DNA of 64,000 nucleotides from an uncultured Massilimicrobiota sp. (GCA_944325245.1 CALUZM010000002.1:5082-69081); one strand, 5' to 3'. Counted from the first letter of the stretch, positions 3,118 to 56,876 are shown. Notes: a model not told the origin generated them from the sequence alone. Numbers and translations are program-made.

Positions 3118-3249
3118 TTTCTTATCCTCCCTTAATTCATCTTTATTATAGCATTTATTTATAAAAAAACTAGAGAAAAATGTTACGTCCATCAATAAAC
3201 ACTATAAAAAAGGTTTGTATTTTTTCTAAAAAAGAATATAATAGATATG

Positions 3250-3330
3250 AGCCAGGGGCGCATTTGCTGAGAAAGGTGAAAGCCTTGTCCCTTATGATCT
3301 GAACTGGGTAATGCCAGCGTAGAGAGTGCA
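3250..3330 (+). ncRNA. TPP (THI-box) riboswitch
   Basis: GGGG..GCTGAGA..CCCTT..GATCTGAACTGGGTAATGCCAGCGTAG core, followed by a terminator hairpin at about 3347-3378 and a thiamine transporter gene. Confidence 0.92.
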
Positions 3331-3407
3331 AATAATGTTTTTTGTGACTTTTTTACGTGGGTAGAAAAGTCTTTTTTATTTGTGGCTTGAATGAAAGGAG
3401 AAGAGTT

Positions 3408-7766: not shown

Positions 7767-7809
7767 AGTATTGAAATTTCATCAAAAAGATGGTAATAAT
7801 ATTTATAAA

Positions 7810-8032
7810 GTTATGATTTGAGAACACCTTATAAACATGTTTAAAAGCGACTTTTGGATGGTGAAAGCAAAAGAAACATATATAATGTGGAACACTCAAT
7901 GAACTGGATAGGAGAAATGTGAGTAGACTATCCCGCAAGACTGCGTTATGGTAAGAGAGCATGATCGTCAGATGATGAATGAGGATGGTACCGCGATATT
8001 TCAAGTCGTTCCTTTAAGGAATGACTTTTTTT
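7810..8032 (+). ncRNA. T-box leader (Asn specifier AAC at 7891-7893)
   Basis: Stem I TTGAG..CTCAA with GGTGAAA loop, specifier AAC, T-box GAGGATGGTACCGCG, terminator AAGTCGTTCC-TTTAA-GGAATGACTTTTTT; upstream of asnS. Confidence 0.88.
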
Positions 8033-32146: not shown

Positions 32147-32171
32147 ATAGCAGTAAATGAAAAGTAGTGGA

Positions 32172-32280
32172 AAGAAGAAGTGCCTACTTCTCGCCTGAGT
32201 GTCAAGGATGCTAGGCTTATGTCACTAAGATTAATATCTTAATGTCAATTTGTGGGTGCTTTATGTACTCACTTTTTATT
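32172..32280 (+). ncRNA. L20 leader (ribosomal protein autoregulatory leader)
   Basis: GAAGTGCCTACTTCTCGCCTGA..TGTGGGTGC..ACTCACTTTTT resembles the Bacillus infC leader (GAAGCACCCGCTTCTCACCTGA..GTGGGTG); upstream of infC. Confidence 0.8.
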
Positions 32281-32311
32281 TAAACTACACAATTTATAGG
32301 AGGTGTCTATT

Positions 32312-39604: not shown

Positions 39605-39654
39605 GAAAAGATTTGCAAAATAATAAAGATATGATATAATATCTTGTGTTTAGA

Positions 39655-39870
39655 ATCGATGAAAAGGAGTAGTAGTTGTTGATACTTTTTAGAGAGTCTA
39701 TGGGTGGTGAAAATAGACAGGTTAGGCAATGAACTCGCCTTGGAGATACAAAGATGAAAAGAGTAGTTTTTGTCGTTAACTGCGTTAAAGTTTTGAGAGC
39801 ATATATGGATGTCATATATGAACTAAGGTGGTATCGCGATCAAGTCGTCCTTAGAGGGGCGACTTTTTAT
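39655..39870 (+). ncRNA. T-box leader (Leu specifier CTC at 39734-39736)
   Basis: AGTA box, AGAGA bulge, GGTGAAA loop, GAA-CTC specifier, AACTAAGGTGGTATCGCG, terminator AAGTCGTCC..GGGGCGACTTTTT. Confidence 0.9.
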
Positions 39871-48249: not shown

Positions 48250-48321
48250 TGTATAAAAGATATTGATAGATTTCAATATCTTTTTTTATGTGATAAAAAG
48301 TGAAAAAATGGCGAAAAAGAT

Positions 48322-48350
48322 TAGACAAAACTACAGACGTTTGTTACAAT
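48322..48350 (+). promoter_or_regulatory. Sigma-A promoter upstream of the purine riboswitch
   Basis: TAGACA ... TACAAT, about 17 nt apart. Confidence 0.6.
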
Positions 48351-48357
48351 AGGCGTG

Positions 48358-48428
48358 GTTATCATATATGTCTGGGAATTGGCTCAGTCGTTTCTACCCC
48401 GTTACCGTAAATAATGGGACTATGATAG
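48358..48428 (+). ncRNA. Purine riboswitch, guanine/hypoxanthine type (discriminator C at 48420)
   Basis: TCATA-TAT-P2(L2 GAATTGG)-GTTTCTAC-P3(L3 CCGTAAA)-GAC-TATGA; terminator GTCTATC-GCAG-GATAGAC-TTTTTTT at about 48442-48467. Confidence 0.92.
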
Positions 48429-48484
48429 ATGCTTTTGATGTGTCTATCGCAGGATAGACTTTTTTTATTGGAGGAGGGACTATA

Positions 48485-49318
48485 GTGAAGAAAAAAATGC
48501 ATTATCTTCTTTTGGTACCTTGTTTGGTTTTATTGATTGTTTTTTTGGTCATGCCATTAATTCAAATCATTTTTCCAACTTTGTTTCCTGAAGGAAGTGG
48601 CTTTAGTTTTGCAAATTATCTGGCTTTTTTTCAAGATGAGTATTATATGACAATTTTTATTAGAACAGTAAGAATTGCTTTGATTTCATCTATTGTCTGT
48701 ATGATTTTGGGGGTGCCAACAGCCTATTTTATTTCTCGATGTGATAAAAAATGGCGTGGTATTTTAATGGCTGTTTCTATTTTCCCCATGTTAACAAATT
48801 CAGTAGTTAGAAGTTTTGCATGGATTAATATTTTAGGAAAAAATGGTGTCATTAATAATATCTTGATGTCTATTGGGATTATTAAGGAACCTATTACAAT
48901 GTTATATACAGAGTTTTCAGTTTTGATTGGTACCATTTATTTGTTTTTACCATTAATGATTATTACTTTGGTTGGTGTTATGGAAAACATTGATAATGAT
49001 ATGATGGAAGCAGCTGAAAGTTTAGGAGCTAGTCGTGTCAAAGCATTTTTAAAAGTGGTATTACCATTGAGTATACCAGGAATTATTGTCGGATGCGTTT
49101 TGGTTTTCACAGGTTCACTCAGTGCCTATACGACACCTCAATTATTAGGAGGACCAAAAAATTTAGTTTTAGCAACATTTATTTCTCAGCAGGCTTTGAG
49201 TTTAAATAACTGGACAGCAGCGAGCGTATTTGCAGTCATTATGATTATTACAACATTAATTGTTATGAAACTTTTAAATGCTATTGCTGCAAAATTAGAT
49301 AAGCGAGGTGAAGTCTAA
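48485..49318 (+). CDS. ABC transporter permease (PotB-like)
   Basis: P.LTNSVVRSFAW..ILG.NG.IN, EAAESLGA EAA motif, PLS.PGI..G. Confidence 0.9.
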   Translation: MKKKMHYLLLVPCLVLLIVFLVMPLIQIIFPTLFPEGSGFSFANYLAFFQDEYYMTIFIRTVRIALISSIVCMILGVPTAYFISRCDKKWRGILMAVSIFPMLTNSVVRSFAWINILGKNGVINNILMSIGIIKEPITMLYTEFSVLIGTIYLFLPLMIITLVGVMENIDNDMMEAAESLGASRVKAFLKVVLPLSIPGIIVGCVLVFTGSLSAYTTPQLLGGPKNLVLATFISQQALSLNNWTAASVFAVIMIITTLIVMKLLNAIAAKLDKRGEV

Positions 49319-50100
49319 TGCGTAAACATAAAGGATTAATGATAATTTCTATTTTGGTATTTGCATTTTTGTTTATACCTTTAATTATTATTGCAGTTAC
49401 AGCTTTTGGATCAGAAGCGACAATTACTTTCCCTATCCATGGTTTTTCATTGCAGTGGTTTGTGAATGTTTTTGAATCAGAAAGCTTTATGAGTTCTTTA
49501 TTGTTGAGTGGTGAAATTGCCTTATTAGCAACTTTATTGGCATTGCTGGTTGGTGTTCCGGCAGCTTATGCATTAGCAAGATATAGTGTAGTGGGGAAAA
49601 AACTTTTGAAAAGTTTCTTCTTATCACCAACGATTATTCCTGGAATTGTTGTCGGGTATGCACTCTATCAATATTTAGTCCTCTCACTGGGATTCCCGGT
49701 TTTTGAAAGTTTACTGTTAGGACATTTCTTAGTTGTTTTACCTTATGTCATTCGTATTGTTGGTTCTTCATTGGATCAGTTTGATTTTGCCATTGAAGAA
49801 GCTGCATTGAGTTTAGGGTGTCAAAAAGGACAAGCTTTCTTTAAAGTGGTTTTACCAAATATTACATCTGGTATCAGTGCTGCTTTTATGTTGTCATTTA
49901 TTAATTCATTTAATAATATTCCTGTATCTATGTTCTTAACAGGACCTGGTGTCACAACTTTACCAACAACACTGATGAATTATATTGAATATAATTATGA
50001 TCCAACGGTTTCAGCCGTTTCTGTATTATTAATGTTAGCAACAATTGTTATTATGTTTATTGTTGAAAAAACATTAGGTATATCAGCACTTGCTAAATAG
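49318..50100 (+). CDS. ABC transporter permease (PotC-like)
   Basis: FP..GFSLQWF, SP.IIPGIV.G, EEAALSLG, TTLP. Confidence 0.9.
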   Translation: MRKHKGLMIISILVFAFLFIPLIIIAVTAFGSEATITFPIHGFSLQWFVNVFESESFMSSLLLSGEIALLATLLALLVGVPAAYALARYSVVGKKLLKSFFLSPTIIPGIVVGYALYQYLVLSLGFPVFESLLLGHFLVVLPYVIRIVGSSLDQFDFAIEEAALSLGCQKGQAFFKVVLPNITSGISAAFMLSFINSFNNIPVSMFLTGPGVTTLPTTLMNYIEYNYDPTVSAVSVLLMLATIVIMFIVEKTLGISALAK

Positions 50101-50111
50101 GAGGAACAATC

Positions 50112-51149
50112 ATGGCATTTTTAAGCTTGAAAGATATAGCAGTCGCATATCATCAAAAAAATTATATTTTACAGGGATTGAATCTTGATATTGAAAAAGG
50201 AGAACTGGTTTCTCTTTTAGGACCATCTGGTTGTGGAAAAACAACAACTTTACGTGTTGTTGCAGGATTTATTGATCCTCAGGAAGGAAACTTCATTTTA
50301 GATGGTGAAGATATGACAAAAGTTCCTGTTCACAAAAGAAATTTTGGATTGGTTTTCCAAAGTTATGCTTTATTTCCACATTTAACAGTTAAAGAAAATA
50401 TTGCATTTGGTTTGAAAATGAGAAAAATGGATAAAGCACAGATGGAAGAAAAAATCAATGAAGTTGTTGAAGTTTGTGATTTAAAAGGATTGACAGATCG
50501 CTTGCCTAAACAATTATCTGGTGGACAACGTCAACGTGTTGCTTTAGCAAGAGCTCTTGTTATTGAACCAAAATTGTTGTTATTAGATGAACCATTAAGT
50601 AATCTAGACGCAAAATTACGTATTCAGATGCGAGTAGAAATCAAAAGATTACAGAAGAAGTTAGGAATCACAACGATTTTTGTAACTCATGATCAGGAAG
50701 AATGTTTTTCAATTTCTGATAAAGTTGCAGTTATGAATAATGGTGTTATTGAACAATATGATACACCTGAAAATATTTACTCAAGACCAAAAACTGAATT
50801 TGTTGCCAGATTTATTGGATTTGAGAACTTCTTTGATTTAACAAAAGTTGAAGAACATCAATACAAAAATCAAAATGGTGATATAGTAAAGGTAGACAAT
50901 GATGACGATTTACAAACATGTAAGGGAACAATTCGTCCTGATGATATTGAAATCGTGACATCTGCTGATAAATATGAAAATCTGATTAGTGGAGAGGTGA
51001 CTGTGAGAACTTTTCTTGGAAAGAGTTATCAATATGAAGTAGATACTTCTATTGGTAAACTTGTAGTAAGCAGTAGTAGTGAGGAAGTTTATAAGCAGGG
51101 AGATAGCATTCAGATGTATTTACCAGCAAATAAAATTGTCTTAGTTTAG
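50112..51149 (+). CDS. ABC transporter ATPase (PotA-like) with TOBE domain
   Basis: GPSGCGKTTTLR, VFQSYALFPHL, LSGGQRQRVALARA, LLDEPLSNLDAKLR, VTHDQEE. Confidence 0.93.
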   Translation: MAFLSLKDIAVAYHQKNYILQGLNLDIEKGELVSLLGPSGCGKTTTLRVVAGFIDPQEGNFILDGEDMTKVPVHKRNFGLVFQSYALFPHLTVKENIAFGLKMRKMDKAQMEEKINEVVEVCDLKGLTDRLPKQLSGGQRQRVALARALVIEPKLLLLDEPLSNLDAKLRIQMRVEIKRLQKKLGITTIFVTHDQEECFSISDKVAVMNNGVIEQYDTPENIYSRPKTEFVARFIGFENFFDLTKVEEHQYKNQNGDIVKVDNDDDLQTCKGTIRPDDIEIVTSADKYENLISGEVTVRTFLGKSYQYEVDTSIGKLVVSSSSEEVYKQGDSIQMYLPANKIVLV

Positions 51150-51167
51150 GAAAGGAAGGTAGAGAAA

Positions 51168-52211
51168 GTGAAGAAATTGTTAGTTGGTTTAATGGCGGGA
51201 GCCATGGTATTAGTTGGTTGTTCTAGTAACAGCGGTAGTGACACAAAAAAATTAGTTGTTTCTACATGGGGATTAAATGCTGATATTGTAAAAAAAGATG
51301 TTTATGAACCGTTTGAAGAGGCTAATGATTGTGAAATTGTTGTTGAAGAAGGAGGAACTTCTGATCGTTATACGAAGTTTGCAAATAATCCTAATTCAGA
51401 TGTAGATATTATTGAATTATCTCAGGCAGAAGCACAAAAAGGATATGCAGCTGACTTGTTTGAAAAATTAGATTATTCTAAAATTGGTAATGCAAAAGAT
51501 TTGATTGATGCTGCTGCTCAATTAAAAGATGAAAATGGTTATGGTGTACCTTATACATTAAACAGTATTGGTATTATCTATGATAAAGAAGCTGTAGGAT
51601 TTGAAATTAAAGAATGGAATGATTTATGGGATACACGTTTAAAAGGACAAATCTCTATTCCAGAAATCACAACAACTTTTGGTCCTGCTATGGTACATAT
51701 TGCAAGTGATTATAAAGGCGTAGATATTACGACAGATGACGGAAAAGCAGCTTTTGAAGCATTAGAAGAATTAAAGCCAAATATTGTCAAAACATATACA
51801 AAATCTTCAGATTTAACAAATATGTTTAGTGCTGGCGAGATATCAGTAGCGGTTGTTGCAGATTTTGGTGTTAGCTTAATTCAAAGTAATAATAAAAACT
51901 GTGAATATGTTGTACCTGCTTCTGGAACATATGCTAATTTTAATACAATTGAAGTCAATAAAAATTCTGATAATAAAGATTTGGCTTACAAATATATTGA
52001 TTGGCGATTAAGTAAAGATTTACAATATAAAGATGCTGTATCTGATTTAAATGAAGCTCCTACAAACAAAACTGTAGAATTAAATGAAGAGGAAGCTTTA
52101 AATAAAACTTATGGTGATGTAGCAGCACGTGCAAAAGTTATTGATTTTAAATTTGTAAACCCATTGTTAGAAGACTGGGTTGATCAATGGACACGTATTT
52201 TAAATAGTTAG
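51168..52211 (+). CDS. ABC substrate-binding lipoprotein (PotD/SBP_bac_6-8 class)
   Basis: Lipobox LVGC, V.TWG, P...N..GIIY, W.DLW, YIDWRLS...Q. Confidence 0.85.
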   Translation: MKKLLVGLMAGAMVLVGCSSNSGSDTKKLVVSTWGLNADIVKKDVYEPFEEANDCEIVVEEGGTSDRYTKFANNPNSDVDIIELSQAEAQKGYAADLFEKLDYSKIGNAKDLIDAAAQLKDENGYGVPYTLNSIGIIYDKEAVGFEIKEWNDLWDTRLKGQISIPEITTTFGPAMVHIASDYKGVDITTDDGKAAFEALEELKPNIVKTYTKSSDLTNMFSAGEISVAVVADFGVSLIQSNNKNCEYVVPASGTYANFNTIEVNKNSDNKDLAYKYIDWRLSKDLQYKDAVSDLNEAPTNKTVELNEEEALNKTYGDVAARAKVIDFKFVNPLLEDWVDQWTRILNS

Positions 52212-52222
52212 GAGATATCATA

Positions 52223-53929
52223 ATGGATCAGCTCATAAAAAATGTGCATGTCTATAATACTTTTACACAGAGTTTTGAAAAGAAGAATGTTTATATCAAA
52301 GAAGATAAGTTTTATTACATTTGTGATGATGAATCTCTCTCTGTTCATAAAGTGATTGATGGCGAAGGAAAGTACATGATTCCTGGGTTGATTGACATCC
52401 ATATGCATATTGAAAGTTCTATGACAATTCCAAGCGAATTTTCACAAGCGGTTTTACCTCATGGGGTCACAACAGTTGTTGCTGACCCACATGAGATAGC
52501 AAATGTTTTTGGAATTCGTGGCATTGAAACAATGATATCCAATGAAACAACATTGGATATTTTTTATGGAATTCCTTCTTCAGTTCCTTCAACAAATACA
52601 TGTTTGGAAACAACTGGAGGAAAAATTGATGTAGAGGATGTTAAACAACTCTTGAAAAATCCACGTATCATGTGTTTAGGTGAAGTTATGAATTTTAAAG
52701 ATTTGATTGGTGGTGAAGAGACTCTCATTAATCAGATTATTCGTACATGTCATCAGGAAAGATGGCAGTTGCCTATAGAGGGGCATTGTCCTAAAATATC
52801 TGGTTTAGATTTGGCACAATATATTTATCAAGGGGTTGATGCGGATCATACGCAACAAACTCCAGAATCTATTGTTGAAAAAATTAAAAATGGAATGTTT
52901 TTAGAAATTCAAAGAAAATCAATGTCTCAAGAGACCATTCAAACATTAGTCAATCATCAGTTCTATGAATATTTTGCATTTGTGACAGATGATGTGATGG
53001 CGGATCAGTTACAGCAGGGTCATCTTAATTTGTTGGTTAAATTAGCATATGATTTAGGTATGCCAATAGAAAAAGCTATTTATTGTGCAACATATACCCC
53101 AGCAAGACGTATGCATATGATTGATCGTGGATGTATCGCACCAGGCAAACTGGCAGATTTTATCTTATTAGATGATTTGTATGATTTTCAAATTCATAGT
53201 GTTTATAAAAAAGGAAAATGTGTCTATCATTGTCATCAAGATATTGTTATTGACGATCAAAAACCTGTTTTTCCACCGGATTTTTATCACTCACTTTATG
53301 CAAAAGAAGCGTCTTTTGAAGATTTTCAGATTGCAGCGTCACAAAAAGAAGTTTTATGCAATGTCATGGAAGTCCAGCCACATTCTACTTTCACAAAACA
53401 TATTCAGATGAAATTACCTGTTAAAGACGGCTATGTTGATTATCAAAGTGCTGGATTATGTTTGCTGACAGTTTTTGAGAGGTATAATAAAAATGGACAT
53501 ATTGCACATGCATTTGTTAAAAACACATTAAAGATGAAAGGTGCTATCGCCACAAGCTGGGCTCATGACCATCATAATATAATGGTTTTAGGAAATTGTG
53601 TAGAAGATATGATTGTTGCACAACATCAGCTGTTAAAGCAACAAGGTGGTTACCTCGTTGTGGAAAATCAACAGATTCAAGCTAATGCATTATTAAATGT
53701 AGGGGGTATTATCAGTGATCAGCCCCTAGCACAATTATCACATGATTTATGTCTTGTGAGAGACGCTATGGAAAAATTAGGCTATGAACATGATAATGGG
53801 ATTATGTCATTGTCGACACTTTCTTTACCCGTTTCTCCAGAATTGAAAATGACAGATTATGGAATGATGGATACATATCATCAGAAGATGATTCCATTGA
53901 TGGAGGAAAATCATGAAGACACTGATTAA
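52223..53929 (+). CDS. ade: Adenine deaminase family amidohydrolase (divergent)
   Basis: PGLIDIHMHIESSM, DPHEIANV.G, LGEVMN, EGH, VTDD, AHDHHN C-terminal domain. Confidence 0.85.
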   Translation: MDQLIKNVHVYNTFTQSFEKKNVYIKEDKFYYICDDESLSVHKVIDGEGKYMIPGLIDIHMHIESSMTIPSEFSQAVLPHGVTTVVADPHEIANVFGIRGIETMISNETTLDIFYGIPSSVPSTNTCLETTGGKIDVEDVKQLLKNPRIMCLGEVMNFKDLIGGEETLINQIIRTCHQERWQLPIEGHCPKISGLDLAQYIYQGVDADHTQQTPESIVEKIKNGMFLEIQRKSMSQETIQTLVNHQFYEYFAFVTDDVMADQLQQGHLNLLVKLAYDLGMPIEKAIYCATYTPARRMHMIDRGCIAPGKLADFILLDDLYDFQIHSVYKKGKCVYHCHQDIVIDDQKPVFPPDFYHSLYAKEASFEDFQIAASQKEVLCNVMEVQPHSTFTKHIQMKLPVKDGYVDYQSAGLCLLTVFERYNKNGHIAHAFVKNTLKMKGAIATSWAHDHHNIMVLGNCVEDMIVAQHQLLKQQGGYLVVENQQIQANALLNVGGIISDQPLAQLSHDLCLVRDAMEKLGYEHDNGIMSLSTLSLPVSPELKMTDYGMMDTYHQKMIPLMEENHEDTD

Positions 53930-55232
53930 AAATGTAACAATTTTAACAATGAATGAACAATTTGATGTTTTTGAAAATGGTCAAATGATTATTGAAGATG
54001 AAAATATCATAGAAATTGGACAAGTTTGTTCTGGGGACTATGATCAATGTATTGATGGGCATCAGGGTATATTATTACCGGGAATGATTAATACACATAC
54101 ACATTTAGGAATGGTACCATTTCGTGGCCTAGGAGATGATTGTCCGGATCGTTTGCGTCGTTTCTTATTTCCACTAGAATCAAAATATATGAGCGCCGAT
54201 CTTGTTTATCATAGTTCATTATATGCTATGGCAGAGATGTTATTGTCAGGTATCACAACTTTTATGGATATGTATTATTTCGAAGATGAAGTTGCTAAAG
54301 CTGCAGATGAAATGAAAATGCGTGCTTTTGTCGGTGAGACAATTGTTGATTTTGCCAGCTGTGACAGTGAGAAACCCTATGGCGGTCTAGACTATTGTGA
54401 ATGGTTTATTCCTAAATGGAAAAATCATCCATTGATTGTTCCTTTTGTAGCGCCTCATGCGACGAATACAAATGATTTGAAACATTTACAGAAGGCTCAT
54501 CAATTGGCTGAAAAATTTGATGTTCCCCTTTCATTTCATGTCAGTGAACTCGATTATGAAATGGATTATTTTCAAAAGACATACCAAATGACACCGATTG
54601 AATTTTTAAATCATTACGGTCTTTTGGATCATCGTCTGGTGGCAGCTCATTGTATTCATATCAATGAACATGATATACAGTTACTTAAAGAAAAGCAAAG
54701 CGCAGTAGCACATTGCTTGGTTTCTAATTTAAAGGCGGGAAAAGGGGTAATGCCGTTACAAGCATTATTAAATCATCATGTACTGGTTGGTCTTGGTACA
54801 GATGGACCTTCCAGTGGTAATACATTAGAATTGTTTTCTATGTTAAAAATGATTGCCTGTGTTCATAAGACTGTTAATCATGATCGTAGTGCTTTTCCAG
54901 CAAGAGATATTCTTGCTTTAGCAACGATTCAAGGCGCAAAAGCTTTACATATTGATCATATGGTGGGCTCTTTGGAAGTCAATAAAAAAGCTGATTTTAT
55001 CATTGTAGAAACAAATTCAGTCAATATGTACCCACTTTATGATCCTTACTCAGCTCTTGTTTATAGTGCCAATGCAAGTCAGGTTGATACAGTCTATGTC
55101 AATGGACAATGTCTGGTTCGTCATAAAAGTCTGCAAAATACATCATTAGATTTATTAAAGAATCATCTCATGACGGCTTCTTTGACTTTCTCTCAAAAAG
55201 CTTTAGAGTATGCTAAAAAAGAGAATATCTAA
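53913..55232 (+). CDS. Amidohydrolase, MTA/SAH deaminase (MtaD)/chlorohydrolase family
   Basis: PGMINTHTH, PHA, HVSE, AAHC, GLGTDG..S, GSLEVNKKAD. Confidence 0.85.
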   Translation: MKTLIKNVTILTMNEQFDVFENGQMIIEDENIIEIGQVCSGDYDQCIDGHQGILLPGMINTHTHLGMVPFRGLGDDCPDRLRRFLFPLESKYMSADLVYHSSLYAMAEMLLSGITTFMDMYYFEDEVAKAADEMKMRAFVGETIVDFASCDSEKPYGGLDYCEWFIPKWKNHPLIVPFVAPHATNTNDLKHLQKAHQLAEKFDVPLSFHVSELDYEMDYFQKTYQMTPIEFLNHYGLLDHRLVAAHCIHINEHDIQLLKEKQSAVAHCLVSNLKAGKGVMPLQALLNHHVLVGLGTDGPSSGNTLELFSMLKMIACVHKTVNHDRSAFPARDILALATIQGAKALHIDHMVGSLEVNKKADFIIVETNSVNMYPLYDPYSALVYSANASQVDTVYVNGQCLVRHKSLQNTSLDLLKNHLMTASLTFSQKALEYAKKENI

Positions 55233-55696
55233 TGATTTATTATTATCAATATTCATCACCATTAGGTGATATGATGCTTGCATCTTTAGACCAGACAATT
55301 GTCTATTGTGGGCAGCCACTTGCTAATGATGAAGGTATCAAAGAGGAAACACCTTATTTACGTCATATAGCAAGACAGCTAGATGAATACTTTCAGGGAA
55401 AAAGAACTTGTTTTGACGTCACTTTTCAATTTTTAAATGGAACTGCTTTTCAACAGAAGGTATGGCAGGCAGTTATCCAGATTCCATATGGAGAAACGCG
55501 AAGTTATCAGGAAATTGCTCAGGCGATTGGACATCCTCGTGCCTATCGAGCAGTAGGGAGTGCTTTACGTGAGTGTCCCATATCTATTTTGATTCCCTGT
55601 CATAGAGTCATCAGTGCTTCAGGGCGTTTAGGTGGATATGGAAATGAAATAGATAAAAAGCTCTTTTTACTTCGTTTAGAGCAGCACTTGTGTTGA
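55232..55696 (+). CDS. ogt: Methylated-DNA--protein-cysteine methyltransferase
   Basis: SPLG, GT.FQ.KVW....IPYGETRSY..IA..IG.PRA.RAVG, IPCHRVI, GGYG. Confidence 0.93.
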   Translation: MIYYYQYSSPLGDMMLASLDQTIVYCGQPLANDEGIKEETPYLRHIARQLDEYFQGKRTCFDVTFQFLNGTAFQQKVWQAVIQIPYGETRSYQEIAQAIGHPRAYRAVGSALRECPISILIPCHRVISASGRLGGYGNEIDKKLFLLRLEQHLC

Positions 55697-55737
55697 TTGC
55701 TTTGATTATGGTAGAATGAAACAAAGGTGGTGTCAGT

Positions 55738-56259
55738 GTGAAAAAAATCAGTATTGAACAATTTGATGAAGTTTATCATTTGTTTCAACAATCTTTCATT
55801 CCAGCAGAGTTAAGACCTTATCAACAGATGAAAGAACTTTTTGAAAAAGATATGTTCACTATTTATGCGCAATATGAAAAAGATGCCTTATTAGGAGCAA
55901 TGATTGTCTGGGAATTAAAGAGTTGTATATATTTAGAAAACTTTGCTGTTGATAGTCAAATGAGAGGAAAAGGATTGGGTAGCCAGTTTCTTAAAGAATT
56001 TTGTTGTTTATACAAAGATGATTTCTTGTTTTTAGAAGTTGAAGAACCACATGATGAAATTTCTAAAAGAAGAATACAATTTTATGAAAAATGGAAGTTT
56101 GTTTTAAATCCATATCATTATCTTCAGCCAACATTTAGAGGTCAGGATCAGCCAGTCTCTTTAACAATGATGACTTATCCACATATCATGAGTGAAGAAC
56201 AATATAAAAAAGTAAAGAAAGAAATATTTGAAGTTGTATATCAAAAGGGAGAATTATGA
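55738..56259 (+). CDS. GNAT family N-acetyltransferase
   Basis: F.PAELR, LENFAVD..MRGKGLGS, LEVE.P, RRI.FYE. Confidence 0.85.
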   Translation: MKKISIEQFDEVYHLFQQSFIPAELRPYQQMKELFEKDMFTIYAQYEKDALLGAMIVWELKSCIYLENFAVDSQMRGKGLGSQFLKEFCCLYKDDFLFLEVEEPHDEISKRRIQFYEKWKFVLNPYHYLQPTFRGQDQPVSLTMMTYPHIMSEEQYKKVKKEIFEVVYQKGEL

Positions 56260-56840
56260 AAGCATTAGAAGAAAAAATAATTAGAGAAGGTATTGTTAAA
56301 AAAGGTAATATTTTAAAAGTAGATAGTTTTTTAAATCATCAGATTGATGTGGCGTTTTTAGATGAGATGGGGAAAGAATTTCAAATGCTTTTTGCTAAGC
56401 ATCCTATCAATAAAATTTTAACGATAGAAGCAAGTGGTATTGGAGTGGCTGTTATGACCGCAAGACATTTTCAAAATGTACCAGTAGTCTTTGCAAAAAA
56501 ATCAAAATCATCTAATATTTCTGATGATTTATATCATACAAAAGTTGATTCATTTACACATCAGAAAACAAATGATGTTGTGATTTCTAAACAATATTTA
56601 AATCAGGATGATCATGTTTTAATTGTTGATGATTTCTTAGCTAATGGATGTGCTGTTTTAGGCTTGATTGATTTGATTCATCAAGCAGGTGCGACTGTTG
56701 AAGGAATTGGTATTGTGATTGAAAAAGGATATCAAAGTGGTGGAAAGAAAATTAGAGAATTAGGTTATCATCTTGAGTCTTTAGCCATTATTGAACACAT
56801 GGATGATGTCAAAGGCGAAATTGTGTTTAGAAAACAATAG
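56256..56840 (+). CDS. xpt: Xanthine phosphoribosyltransferase
   Basis: L.EKI..EG.V..GNILKVDSFLNHQID, TIEASGI, VLIVDDFLANG PRPP motif. Confidence 0.93.
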   Translation: MKALEEKIIREGIVKKGNILKVDSFLNHQIDVAFLDEMGKEFQMLFAKHPINKILTIEASGIGVAVMTARHFQNVPVVFAKKSKSSNISDDLYHTKVDSFTHQKTNDVVISKQYLNQDDHVLIVDDFLANGCAVLGLIDLIHQAGATVEGIGIVIEKGYQSGGKKIRELGYHLESLAIIEHMDDVKGEIVFRKQ

Positions 56841-56876
56841 AAATATCTCGGTGAATCCGAGATATTTTGTTTTTTC
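56840..56876 (+). terminator. Terminator after xpt
   Basis: AAATATCTCGG-TGAAT-CCGAGATATTT followed by Ts. Confidence 0.8.

Follow-up and report, generated by a model that had tools for sequence, protein, structure and literature searches.

Guanine riboswitches serve as pointers to purine metabolism genes. In Bacillus subtilis the units under their control (xpt-pbuX, pbuG and nupG) carry permeases of the NCS2 or NupG kind, while importers built of two permeases, an ATPase with a TOBE domain and a cluster-D type binding protein are represented by the polyamine systems PotABCD and PotFGHI of Escherichia coli. We analysed a window of 64,000 nt from an uncultured Massilimicrobiota sp., a gut member of the Erysipelotrichaceae (GCA_944325245.1 CALUZM010000002.1:5082-69081; all positions are counted from the start of the window), in which nine closely packed + strand genes lie behind a purine riboswitch and a strong terminator after the last gene closes the unit. 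Here the riboswitch points at a 'polyamine' importer of the ATP-binding cassette (ABC) type, encoded by permB, permC, atpA and the binding-protein gene sbp. Two amidohydrolase genes follow, one related to adenine deaminases (adeL) and one to the Tm0936/MtaD group (amh), and then ogt, a gene for a GNAT acetyltransferase and xpt (Table 1); the first six genes are referred to below as the cassette. In our judgement the operon is likely to be a guanine-repressed system for the uptake and conversion of an adenine-like purine derivative that would feed salvage, with transport, enzyme activities, ligand identity and co-transcription being what we infer from the sequence.

The RF00167 (purine) model matched positions 48342-48442 of the + strand over its full length (1-102), with 73.2 bits against a gathering score of 37 (E 4.5e-11), and this was the sole RF00167 match in an assembly that is 96.85% complete. 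The riboswitch was aligned with 11 orthologous cassette riboswitches, and the pocket read from the sequence contains U22 (48367), U47 (48391), U51 (48395) and the discriminator C74 (48420), with GUUUCUAC as J2-3 at 48390-48397. It was previously established that C74 denotes guanine or hypoxanthine and U74 adenine. Absence of U47 marks the 8-oxoguanine variant, and U51G with insertions defines xanthine-II, whereas guanine-II has insertions with U51 kept (PMC9295807, PMC10556655). Because none of the published variant definitions (xanthine-II, guanine-II, 8-oxoguanine) applies, the aptamer reads as an ordinary one of the guanine-I class. The guanine-type switch with a C discriminator, U51 and a terminator that had been claimed in the original prediction was recovered in full. 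J1-2 reads UAU instead of UAA and L2 is one nucleotide shorter, and the stretch CAUAUAU is common to 11 of the 12 cassette riboswitches. A variant specificity was considered and rejected, as the pocket fits none of the xanthine-II, guanine-II, 2'-deoxyguanosine or 8-oxoguanine definitions and the same J1-2 variant was found in purine riboswitches that stand outside the cassette in the same Turicibacter genomes, for which reason UAU is taken as a lineage trait and not as a signature of the cassette. Separately, two Turicibacter genomes were seen to hold paired, near-identical purine riboswitch aptamers in the same orientation with a spacing of about 320-640 nt (G119:C1:2571396-2571815, with L110 and L115, and G394:C1:477274-478016, with L111 and L117), perhaps arranged in tandem or the outcome of a local duplication.

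In computed foldings the terminator and antiterminator of the expression platform are mutually exclusive, and the antiterminator also overlaps the P1 3' strand. It has 48424-48428 in common with that strand and 48442-48448 in common with the 5' arm of the terminator, and GAUAGAUGC (48424-48432) pairs alternatively with the same arm. The platform thus appears to be a transcription-termination OFF switch in the classic arrangement. With ample guanine, hypoxanthine or xanthine, P1 would be locked by the ligand and GUCUAUC left free for the terminator, and transcription would stop before permB; under purine scarcity GUCUAUC would pair with the P1 3' strand as antiterminator and the operon would be read. 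The RNA is predicted to start at about 48357, some two bases ahead of P1, from a promoter called by consensus match only, promoter-like sites not being enriched in the region.

To place the locus among its relatives, the nine proteins of the window were compared by tblastn with loci gathered by three routes. The order permB-permC-atpA-sbp-adeL-amh was collinear in 13 of 14 loci, a single Turicibacter locus being without adeL, and four further loci kept the transporter with the amidohydrolase downstream; two of these (L085 and L087) were complete, and adeL was split in L084 and absent from L086. In total the cassette is collinear in 15 of 18 other loci, the remaining three differing only by a missing or broken adeL. 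Cassette loci were found in Erysipelotrichales, Turicibacter, Bacillaceae, Carnobacterium and Clostridia, the closest being those of Massilimicrobiota, where the binding protein of M. timonensis has 95% identity to that of the window. The flanks are unrelated across Bacillus sp. FJAT-27251, Carnobacterium sp. 17-4, Ornithinibacillus californiensis, Anaerocolumna, Lachnospiraceae, Turicibacter and Erysipelothrix larvae, and the spread is patchy, the binding-protein clade occurring in 9 of 401 sampled genomes of the phylum, suggesting that the cassette behaves as a self-contained and horizontally mobile unit. Since amh was kept in every locus and adeL was missing or broken in three, the transporter and amh make up the minimal unit, and adeL probably acts on a parallel or downstream substrate.

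Of the 19 cassette loci, 13 have a C74-type purine riboswitch immediately before the first permease gene. In three Clostridia loci (L005, L031 and L085) a divergent LysR-type gene stands in place of the riboswitch, the assignment in L005 being a reading of the upstream sequence. In Carnobacterium, L086 and L087, repeated CGAAC/GTTCG motifs resembling PurR boxes were recognised by eye upstream (L087 4861-5290, L029 6890-7220, L086 2841-3112), and only these repeats suggest purine control at the riboswitch-less copies. One and the same cassette seems to be wired to purine control in differing ways. The neighbourhood comparison in other Bacillota that had been proposed along with the original prediction shows a conserved unit that lies repeatedly behind a guanine-type riboswitch. 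A literature search returned no paper on the cassette, none on a purine riboswitch with a spermidine/putrescine-type transporter, and none joining a riboswitch, an ABC transporter, an adenine deaminase and an amidohydrolase. The cassette is widely shared and previously uncharacterised, and stands here behind an ordinary guanine switch.

The alternative that survives best is the scavenging of plain adenine, adenosine, methylthioadenosine (MTA) or 5'-deoxyadenosine, in which adeL would deaminate adenine and amh adenosine or MTA, to give hypoxanthine or inosine for the synthesis of inosine and guanosine monophosphate. The end-product OFF switch fits such a role, and several features of adeL favour it. 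The protein aligns to the Atu4426 adenine deaminase (PDB 3NQB) at E 1e-51, it is the sole member of the adenine-deaminase family (cog1001) in the assembly and would be the only adenine deaminase of the genome, and it keeps all binuclear metal ligands, with HMHIES, GEVMN, EGH, DH and TDD conserved in all orthologues. The score of 396.9 bits on TIGR01178 (EC 3.5.4.2) counts in its favour too, but lies below the equivalog cut-off of 472.5, and the active site is altered. The DHE motif is replaced by an invariant DHT[Q/H]Q in 14 of 14 cassette orthologues, Thr taking the place of the Glu that follows the metal-ligand His, and the C-terminal HDSHN has become HDHHN in 12 of the 14. When the 14 adeL sequences were compared position by position with 19 canonical Ade proteins, six class-specific positions were found, two of which are purine contacts: Glu and Arg in the 19 canonical proteins are Thr (T210) and Gln (Q230) in all 14. 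The counterpart of T210 in YerA, Glu232, was docked at purine N1 (PMC8643624), and the counterparts of Q230, Arg260 of Atu4426 and Arg252 of YerA, were described as a purine contact (PMC12133300). An adenine-deaminase homologue had been predicted from the start; membership of cog1001 and the metal ligands bear this out, whereas two residues of the canonical active site are lost.

Across 400 genomes the similarity to adeL was bimodal, at 44% identity or more or at 36% or less. The 10 genomes with an adeL-type gene (at least 44% identity) showed DH[T/C] and HDHHN, and the group at 36% or less had DHE or CHE and mostly HD(S/C)HN, except for the divergent outlier L049 (G011). This last gene is a third type of adenine-deaminase homologue, with DHTLG and GHDAHN and 32% identity to adeL, and falls in neither clade. 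Six genomes hold an adeL-type gene together with a canonical, DHE-type Ade, an argument for a distinct function of adeL and against its being a redundant adenine deaminase. By these comparisons adeL belongs to a separate clade and would not be a standard adenine deaminase, and with two canonical active-site residues lost, plain adenine is an unlikely substrate for it. Two stand-alone adeL-like genes (46-50% identity) were also found, one overlapping purA and the other near guaB, so that the clade stays in contexts of purine interconversion. In one such genome (G397, L065 7773-10771) the adeL-like gene, with 46% identity and DHCLQ, begins at the last base of purA, and a canonical Ade is present as well. 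The possibility that adeL is an N6-methyladenine deaminase like YerA or Bh0637 was rejected, as the C-terminal domain of YerA (9JQL) matched only at E 1.4e-3 and YerA retains the Glu and Arg that adeL lost.

The second amidohydrolase, amh, had its best PDB matches in 3LNP and in the MTA/S-adenosylhomocysteine (SAH) deaminase 4F0R (E 1e-65 to 1e-67). Aligned to 4F0R, all subtype-III motifs (HxH, HxxE, H, D) are present, as NTHTH, HVSE, AAHC, GTDG, FPLE and APHA. Also retained are the His of PHA and the Glu that lines up with WP(T/A/V)E in MTA/SAH deaminases; in Tm0936 the ribose hydroxyls and adenine N3 are contacted by these two residues. Nearness to MTA/SAH deaminases and the retained, presumably ribose-contacting Glu count in favour of scavenging of plain adenine compounds. 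Set against it, amh lies below the equivalog cut-offs of MtaD (PRK15493, 213.7 vs 779) and DadD (PRK07228, 283.6 vs 522), as of every other equivalog model, and the substrate loop before the Glu carries a deletion of two residues and, in place of the DWL of MTA/SAH deaminases, an invariant DRLR. Sequences of the amh type (at least 45% identity) were found only in the cassette genomes and in two genomes of another genus, where the gene is located beside a LacI regulator, a BMP-type nucleoside ABC transporter, a nucleoside hydrolase and a PfkB kinase. On this evidence amh forms a clade of its own that is tied to transporters, and the neighbourhood of its closest non-cassette relatives favours a nucleoside-type substrate. 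It was also considered that amh might be an N2,N2-dimethylguanine hydrolase similar to NdmH or AtzB (PMC13054789), but the structures of AtzB and 8-oxoguanine deaminase matched the C-terminal half only (E 4e-41), the MTA/SAH-type match given above being the stronger.

With the catalytic Glu and purine-contact Arg lost in every adeL orthologue and with amh set apart, we regard the scavenging of plain adenine, adenosine or MTA as unlikely, though it is the best placed of the alternatives, and the substrate of the operon is probably not plain adenine. An altered adeL active site, the presence of canonical Ade beside adeL and the separate clade of amh make us lean instead to a modified or non-canonical aminopurine. 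We put forward tentatively, as a possibility that falls somewhat short of probable, that the cassette is dedicated to the uptake and conversion of a non-canonical aminopurine that ordinary salvage enzymes could not use. Candidates may be N-alkylated or 2-substituted adenines (1-methyladenine, N6-methyladenine, 2,6-diaminopurine or isoguanine) or a 5'- or base-modified adenosine arising from the turnover of nucleic acids or S-adenosylmethionine. In that case adeL may be a new catalytic variant of the adenine-deaminase fold, able to work without the N1-contact Glu and the purine-contact Arg, and amh may represent a new specificity of the Tm0936 clade.

Among the loci compared, ogt, the GNAT gene and xpt join the cassette only in Massilimicrobiota. 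In 18 relatives of the same family no purine riboswitch was found within 1.5 kb of xpt, and the GNAT gene stands directly before xpt, often overlapping it, in the loci of eight relatives (L119-L123, L125, L128 and L136); in the window the overlap is the ATGA at 56256-56259. One of these loci, L123, has the complete ogt-GNAT-xpt string with neither cassette nor riboswitch. The arrangement indicates that in Massilimicrobiota an ogt-GNAT-xpt string already existed when the riboswitch and cassette were inserted ahead of it, an event that would have put xpt, for which such regulation makes sense, and incidentally ogt and the GNAT gene, under guanine control. The GNAT protein matched no specific family, and ogt and GNAT are probably passengers that give no guide to the substrate. 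It was for this reason, the string being older than the insertion, that ogt was dismissed as a pointer to an alkylated purine. Deamination followed by salvage through Xpt, as originally predicted, is supported as regards purine salvage; xpt itself lies outside the conserved unit, and since GNAT-xpt and ogt-GNAT-xpt exist free of the cassette, salvage through Xpt and any link to ogt are consequences of a lineage-specific insertion.

The age of this string also bears on a catabolic or detoxifying role, namely the removal of toxic purine analogues or the gain of nitrogen from aminopurines, with a riboswitch that only prevents waste. Such a role could draw on the ammonia or amines that two hydrolytic deaminases would release, on the TRZ/ATZ chlorohydrolase-type hydrolases among the nearest family models of amh, which act on xenobiotic N-heterocycles, and on the presence of ogt, an alkyl-damage repair gene, in the operon. 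We consider it improbable, as ogt comes from the older string and not from the cassette, downstream genes of purine-ring catabolism were found in none of the compared loci, and an uptake system that the normal end product shuts down, and that is released from repression under purine scarcity, follows the logic of salvage.

The transporter and its binding protein are named spermidine/putrescine or polyamine in public databases, as had been anticipated in the original prediction. All four subunits missed the PotABCD equivalog cut-offs (PotB 188/348, PotC 129/326, PotA 356/482 and PotD 55/582), and the binding protein scored 55 bits against each of the PotD and PotF models, whose cut-offs are 582 and 636. 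To map the ligand site, the 13 ligand residues known from the literature were confirmed at their positions in PotD of E. coli K-12, and MAFFT and an hhalign profile-profile alignment (98.7% probability) gave agreeing residue assignments. In the binding-protein family Glu171 of PotD is replaced by Thr170, Trp255 by Asn257, Asp257 by Asn259, Trp229 by Ala/Gly231, Tyr293 by Glu296 and Tyr85 by Ala or Ser, with Thr170, Asn257, Asn259 and Glu296 invariant among 20 diverse members. Trp34 and the acidic Asp39 are retained. PDB 4EDP, deposited as 'ABC transporter, substrate-binding protein', is a full-length homologue (384 bits, E 3e-114), on which our literature search found no paper, and a crystal structure at 58% identity to the binding protein exists. 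Judged by these scores and residues the protein is not an orthologue of PotD or PotF, and would be a lipoprotein receptor outside the cell, with a pocket remodelled away from polyamines. A genuine spermidine/putrescine importer with the deaminase genes and riboswitch as unrelated neighbours, which would account for the PotABCD-like architecture and fold, for the names given by several sources and for the polyamine-binding proteins that are the nearest named PDB relatives after 4EDP, is very improbable, since the four subunits fall far under the PotABCD/PotFGHI cut-offs, PotD Glu171, Trp255 and Asp257 have become invariant Thr, Asn and Asn, and the transporter genes travel with both deaminase genes into unrelated contexts behind guanine riboswitches. 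The same observations favour the import of a purine derivative that the original prediction had placed behind the polyamine label.

We propose that an ABC importer of PotABCD architecture would take up an adenine-like purine derivative, either base or nucleoside, and that two cytoplasmic amidohydrolases, the binuclear cog1001 enzyme adeL, whose active site is altered, and the mononuclear Tm0936/MtaD-like enzyme amh, would hydrolytically strip its exocyclic substituents to give hypoxanthine- or xanthine-level products. These would enter salvage, through Xpt here and Hpt elsewhere, and would feed back on the riboswitch. Several points weigh against this proposal of guanine-repressed uptake and conversion. 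Six of the 19 cassette loci are without a purine riboswitch, and with purF and two NCS2 permeases the genome has means of purine supply besides the operon. Two or three acidic positions are kept in the pocket of the binding protein (Asp39, Glu296 and an Asp/Glu near 166-168) and leave room for an amine-bearing ligand. Furthermore, adeL without its N1-contact Glu could be catalytically weak or might not be a deaminase of the adenine ring, and a hairpin inside adeL (52534-52561) might lower the expression of the distal genes.

The features of the unit are listed in Table 1. Neighbouring genes overlap or are separated by at most 41 nt, the junction of amh and ogt being a TAATG overlap, and the ribosome-binding site GGAGGAGGG stands before the nine open reading frames (ORFs), so that the list of genes and the tight spacing given in the original prediction were confirmed. 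Curated NCBIfam cut-offs were passed only by Xpt, on an equivalog, and Ogt, on a superfamily-level model, the other seven proteins lying below all of them. A terminator scan of the nine-gene unit predicted none between the genes upstream of 56840, and the earlier statement that no strong hairpin precedes this position is correct for the junctions and not for the coding sequence of adeL, where the hairpin at 52534-52561 is terminator-like (11 pairs followed by TTTTAT, -12.4 kcal/mol) and is preserved in the nucleotide sequence of M. timonensis (L027). This hairpin could be a product of chance within the conserved peptide ISNETTLDIFYG, or an internal attenuator.

Table 1. Observed and predicted features of the riboswitch-controlled nine-gene unit (window positions)
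Feature	Position	Strand	Basis
Sigma-70-type promoter-like site, TAGACA-17 nt-TGnTACAAT (extended -10)	48322-48350	+	10/12 consensus matches, TG present
Aptamer, assigned to guanine-I class	48359-48428	+	P1 = 48359-48366 paired with 48421-48428
Predicted antiterminator hairpin GAUAGAUGC...GUGUCUAUC	48424-48448	+	RNAfold -9.0 kcal/mol alone; -15.4 in context without the P1 5' strand
Predicted intrinsic terminator of the expression platform, GUCUAUC-GCAG-GAUAGAC-U7	48442-48466	+	7-bp stem 48442-48459, RNAfold -9.5 kcal/mol
permB, ABC permease, PotB-like fold below equivalog cut-off	48485-49318	+	PF00528; NF007044 PotB 188 bits vs cut-off 348
permC, ABC permease, PotC-like fold below equivalog cut-off	49318-50100	+	PF00528; NF007047 PotC 129 bits vs cut-off 326
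atpA, ABC ATPase with TOBE_2 domain	50112-51149	+	PF00005, PF08402; under every NCBIfam cut-off
sbp, lipoprotein solute-binding protein (lipobox LVGC)	51168-52211	+	Not a PotD/PotF orthologue by score; PDB 4EDP 384 bits
adeL, 568-aa divergent cog1001 amidohydrolase with Adenine_deam_C domain	52223-53929	+	TIGR01178 396.9 vs cut-off 472.5
amh, 439-aa Tm0936/MtaD-like subtype-III amidohydrolase	53913-55232	+	PF01979 225.9 bits; below all NCBIfam cut-offs
ogt, methylated-DNA-protein-cysteine methyltransferase	55232-55696	+	TIGR00589 110.6 vs cut-off 46.4; PCHR motif (IPCHRV)
GNAT acetyltransferase	55738-56259	+	PF00583, PF13508
xpt, xanthine phosphoribosyltransferase	56256-56840	+	NF006671 270 vs 177; TIGR01744 237.6 vs 164.45
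Predicted operon-end intrinsic terminator, 12-pair stem (56840-56868) and T-run	56840-56875	+	Terminator scan

Upstream of the unit, an A/T-rich hairpin, AAAGATATTGA-TAGAT-TTCAATATCTTT followed by a T-run, was observed at 48258-48290 after a 132-aa ORF. It probably ends the transcription of this ORF and would insulate the riboswitch promoter, and was missed by the terminator scan because its stem has few G-C pairs. Other cis-regulatory RNAs of the window are a thiamine pyrophosphate (TPP) riboswitch, two T-box leaders and an L20 leader (3244-3343, 7804-8016, 32166-32286 and 39650-39855).

The six genes recur in Bacillota of the gut (Massilimicrobiota, Turicibacter, Thomasclavelia and Lachnospiraceae), in animal-associated Erysipelothrix and in environmental Bacillaceae and Carnobacterium, and the active sites of both deaminase paralogues differ from those of every characterised relative. 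The finding would correct a systematic mis-annotation, and the soluble binding protein with its solved homologue, together with two enzymes, offers a tractable set of proteins for finding the scavenged purine-derived nutrient. Were the substrate a modified purine, the cassette would represent a missing branch of purine salvage with two new enzyme specificities; were it a non-canonical aminopurine, the cassette would define a new class of nutrient, along with two enzyme activities and, for PotD-like binding proteins, a ligand specificity that are likewise new.

In comparison with known systems, the locus resembles the guanine-riboswitch units of B. subtilis in the U22/U47/U51/C74 pocket, in a platform that would act as a terminator OFF switch, in the presumed end-product repression and in having xpt in the unit. 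It differs from them in its cargo, which is a PotABCD-type ABC importer with two amidohydrolases instead of an NCS2 or NupG permease, and in that xpt appears to have come under the switch only through the insertion of the cassette upstream. With PotABCD and PotFGHI of E. coli the transporter shares the two permeases, the TOBE-domain ATPase and the cluster-D type binding protein, but the order here is permease-permease-ATPase-binding protein, the genes are joined to those of deaminases, and the polyamine contacts are replaced by invariant Thr, Asn and Asn as well as by Ala/Gly and Glu; 4EDP, a structural-genomics entry, gives a fold for the binding protein and no specificity. Like the adenine deaminases E. 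coli Ade and Atu4426, adeL has an amidohydrolase barrel, an Adenine_deam_C domain and all ligands of the binuclear metal center, and unlike them it has DHT, HDHHN and a Gln for Arg260, forms its own clade and coexists with canonical Ade. YerA (Bsu06560) and Bh0637 provide a precedent for cog1001 paralogues of Ade moving to modified adenines or nucleosides and yielding hypoxanthine for salvage (PMC12133300, PMC8643624). Nevertheless, adeL lies outside the YerA clade (9JQL E 1.4e-3 vs Atu4426 6.6e-10), and Glu232 and Arg252, which YerA has kept, are lost in adeL. Finally, amh has in common with the Tm0936/MtaD-type deaminases of MTA, SAH and 5'-deoxyadenosine (4F0R, 1P1M) the subtype-III metal and catalytic motifs, the WPxE Glu and the PHA His, and is set apart from them by scores under the cut-offs, by the loop deletion with DRLR and by a clade of its own that is linked to transporters.

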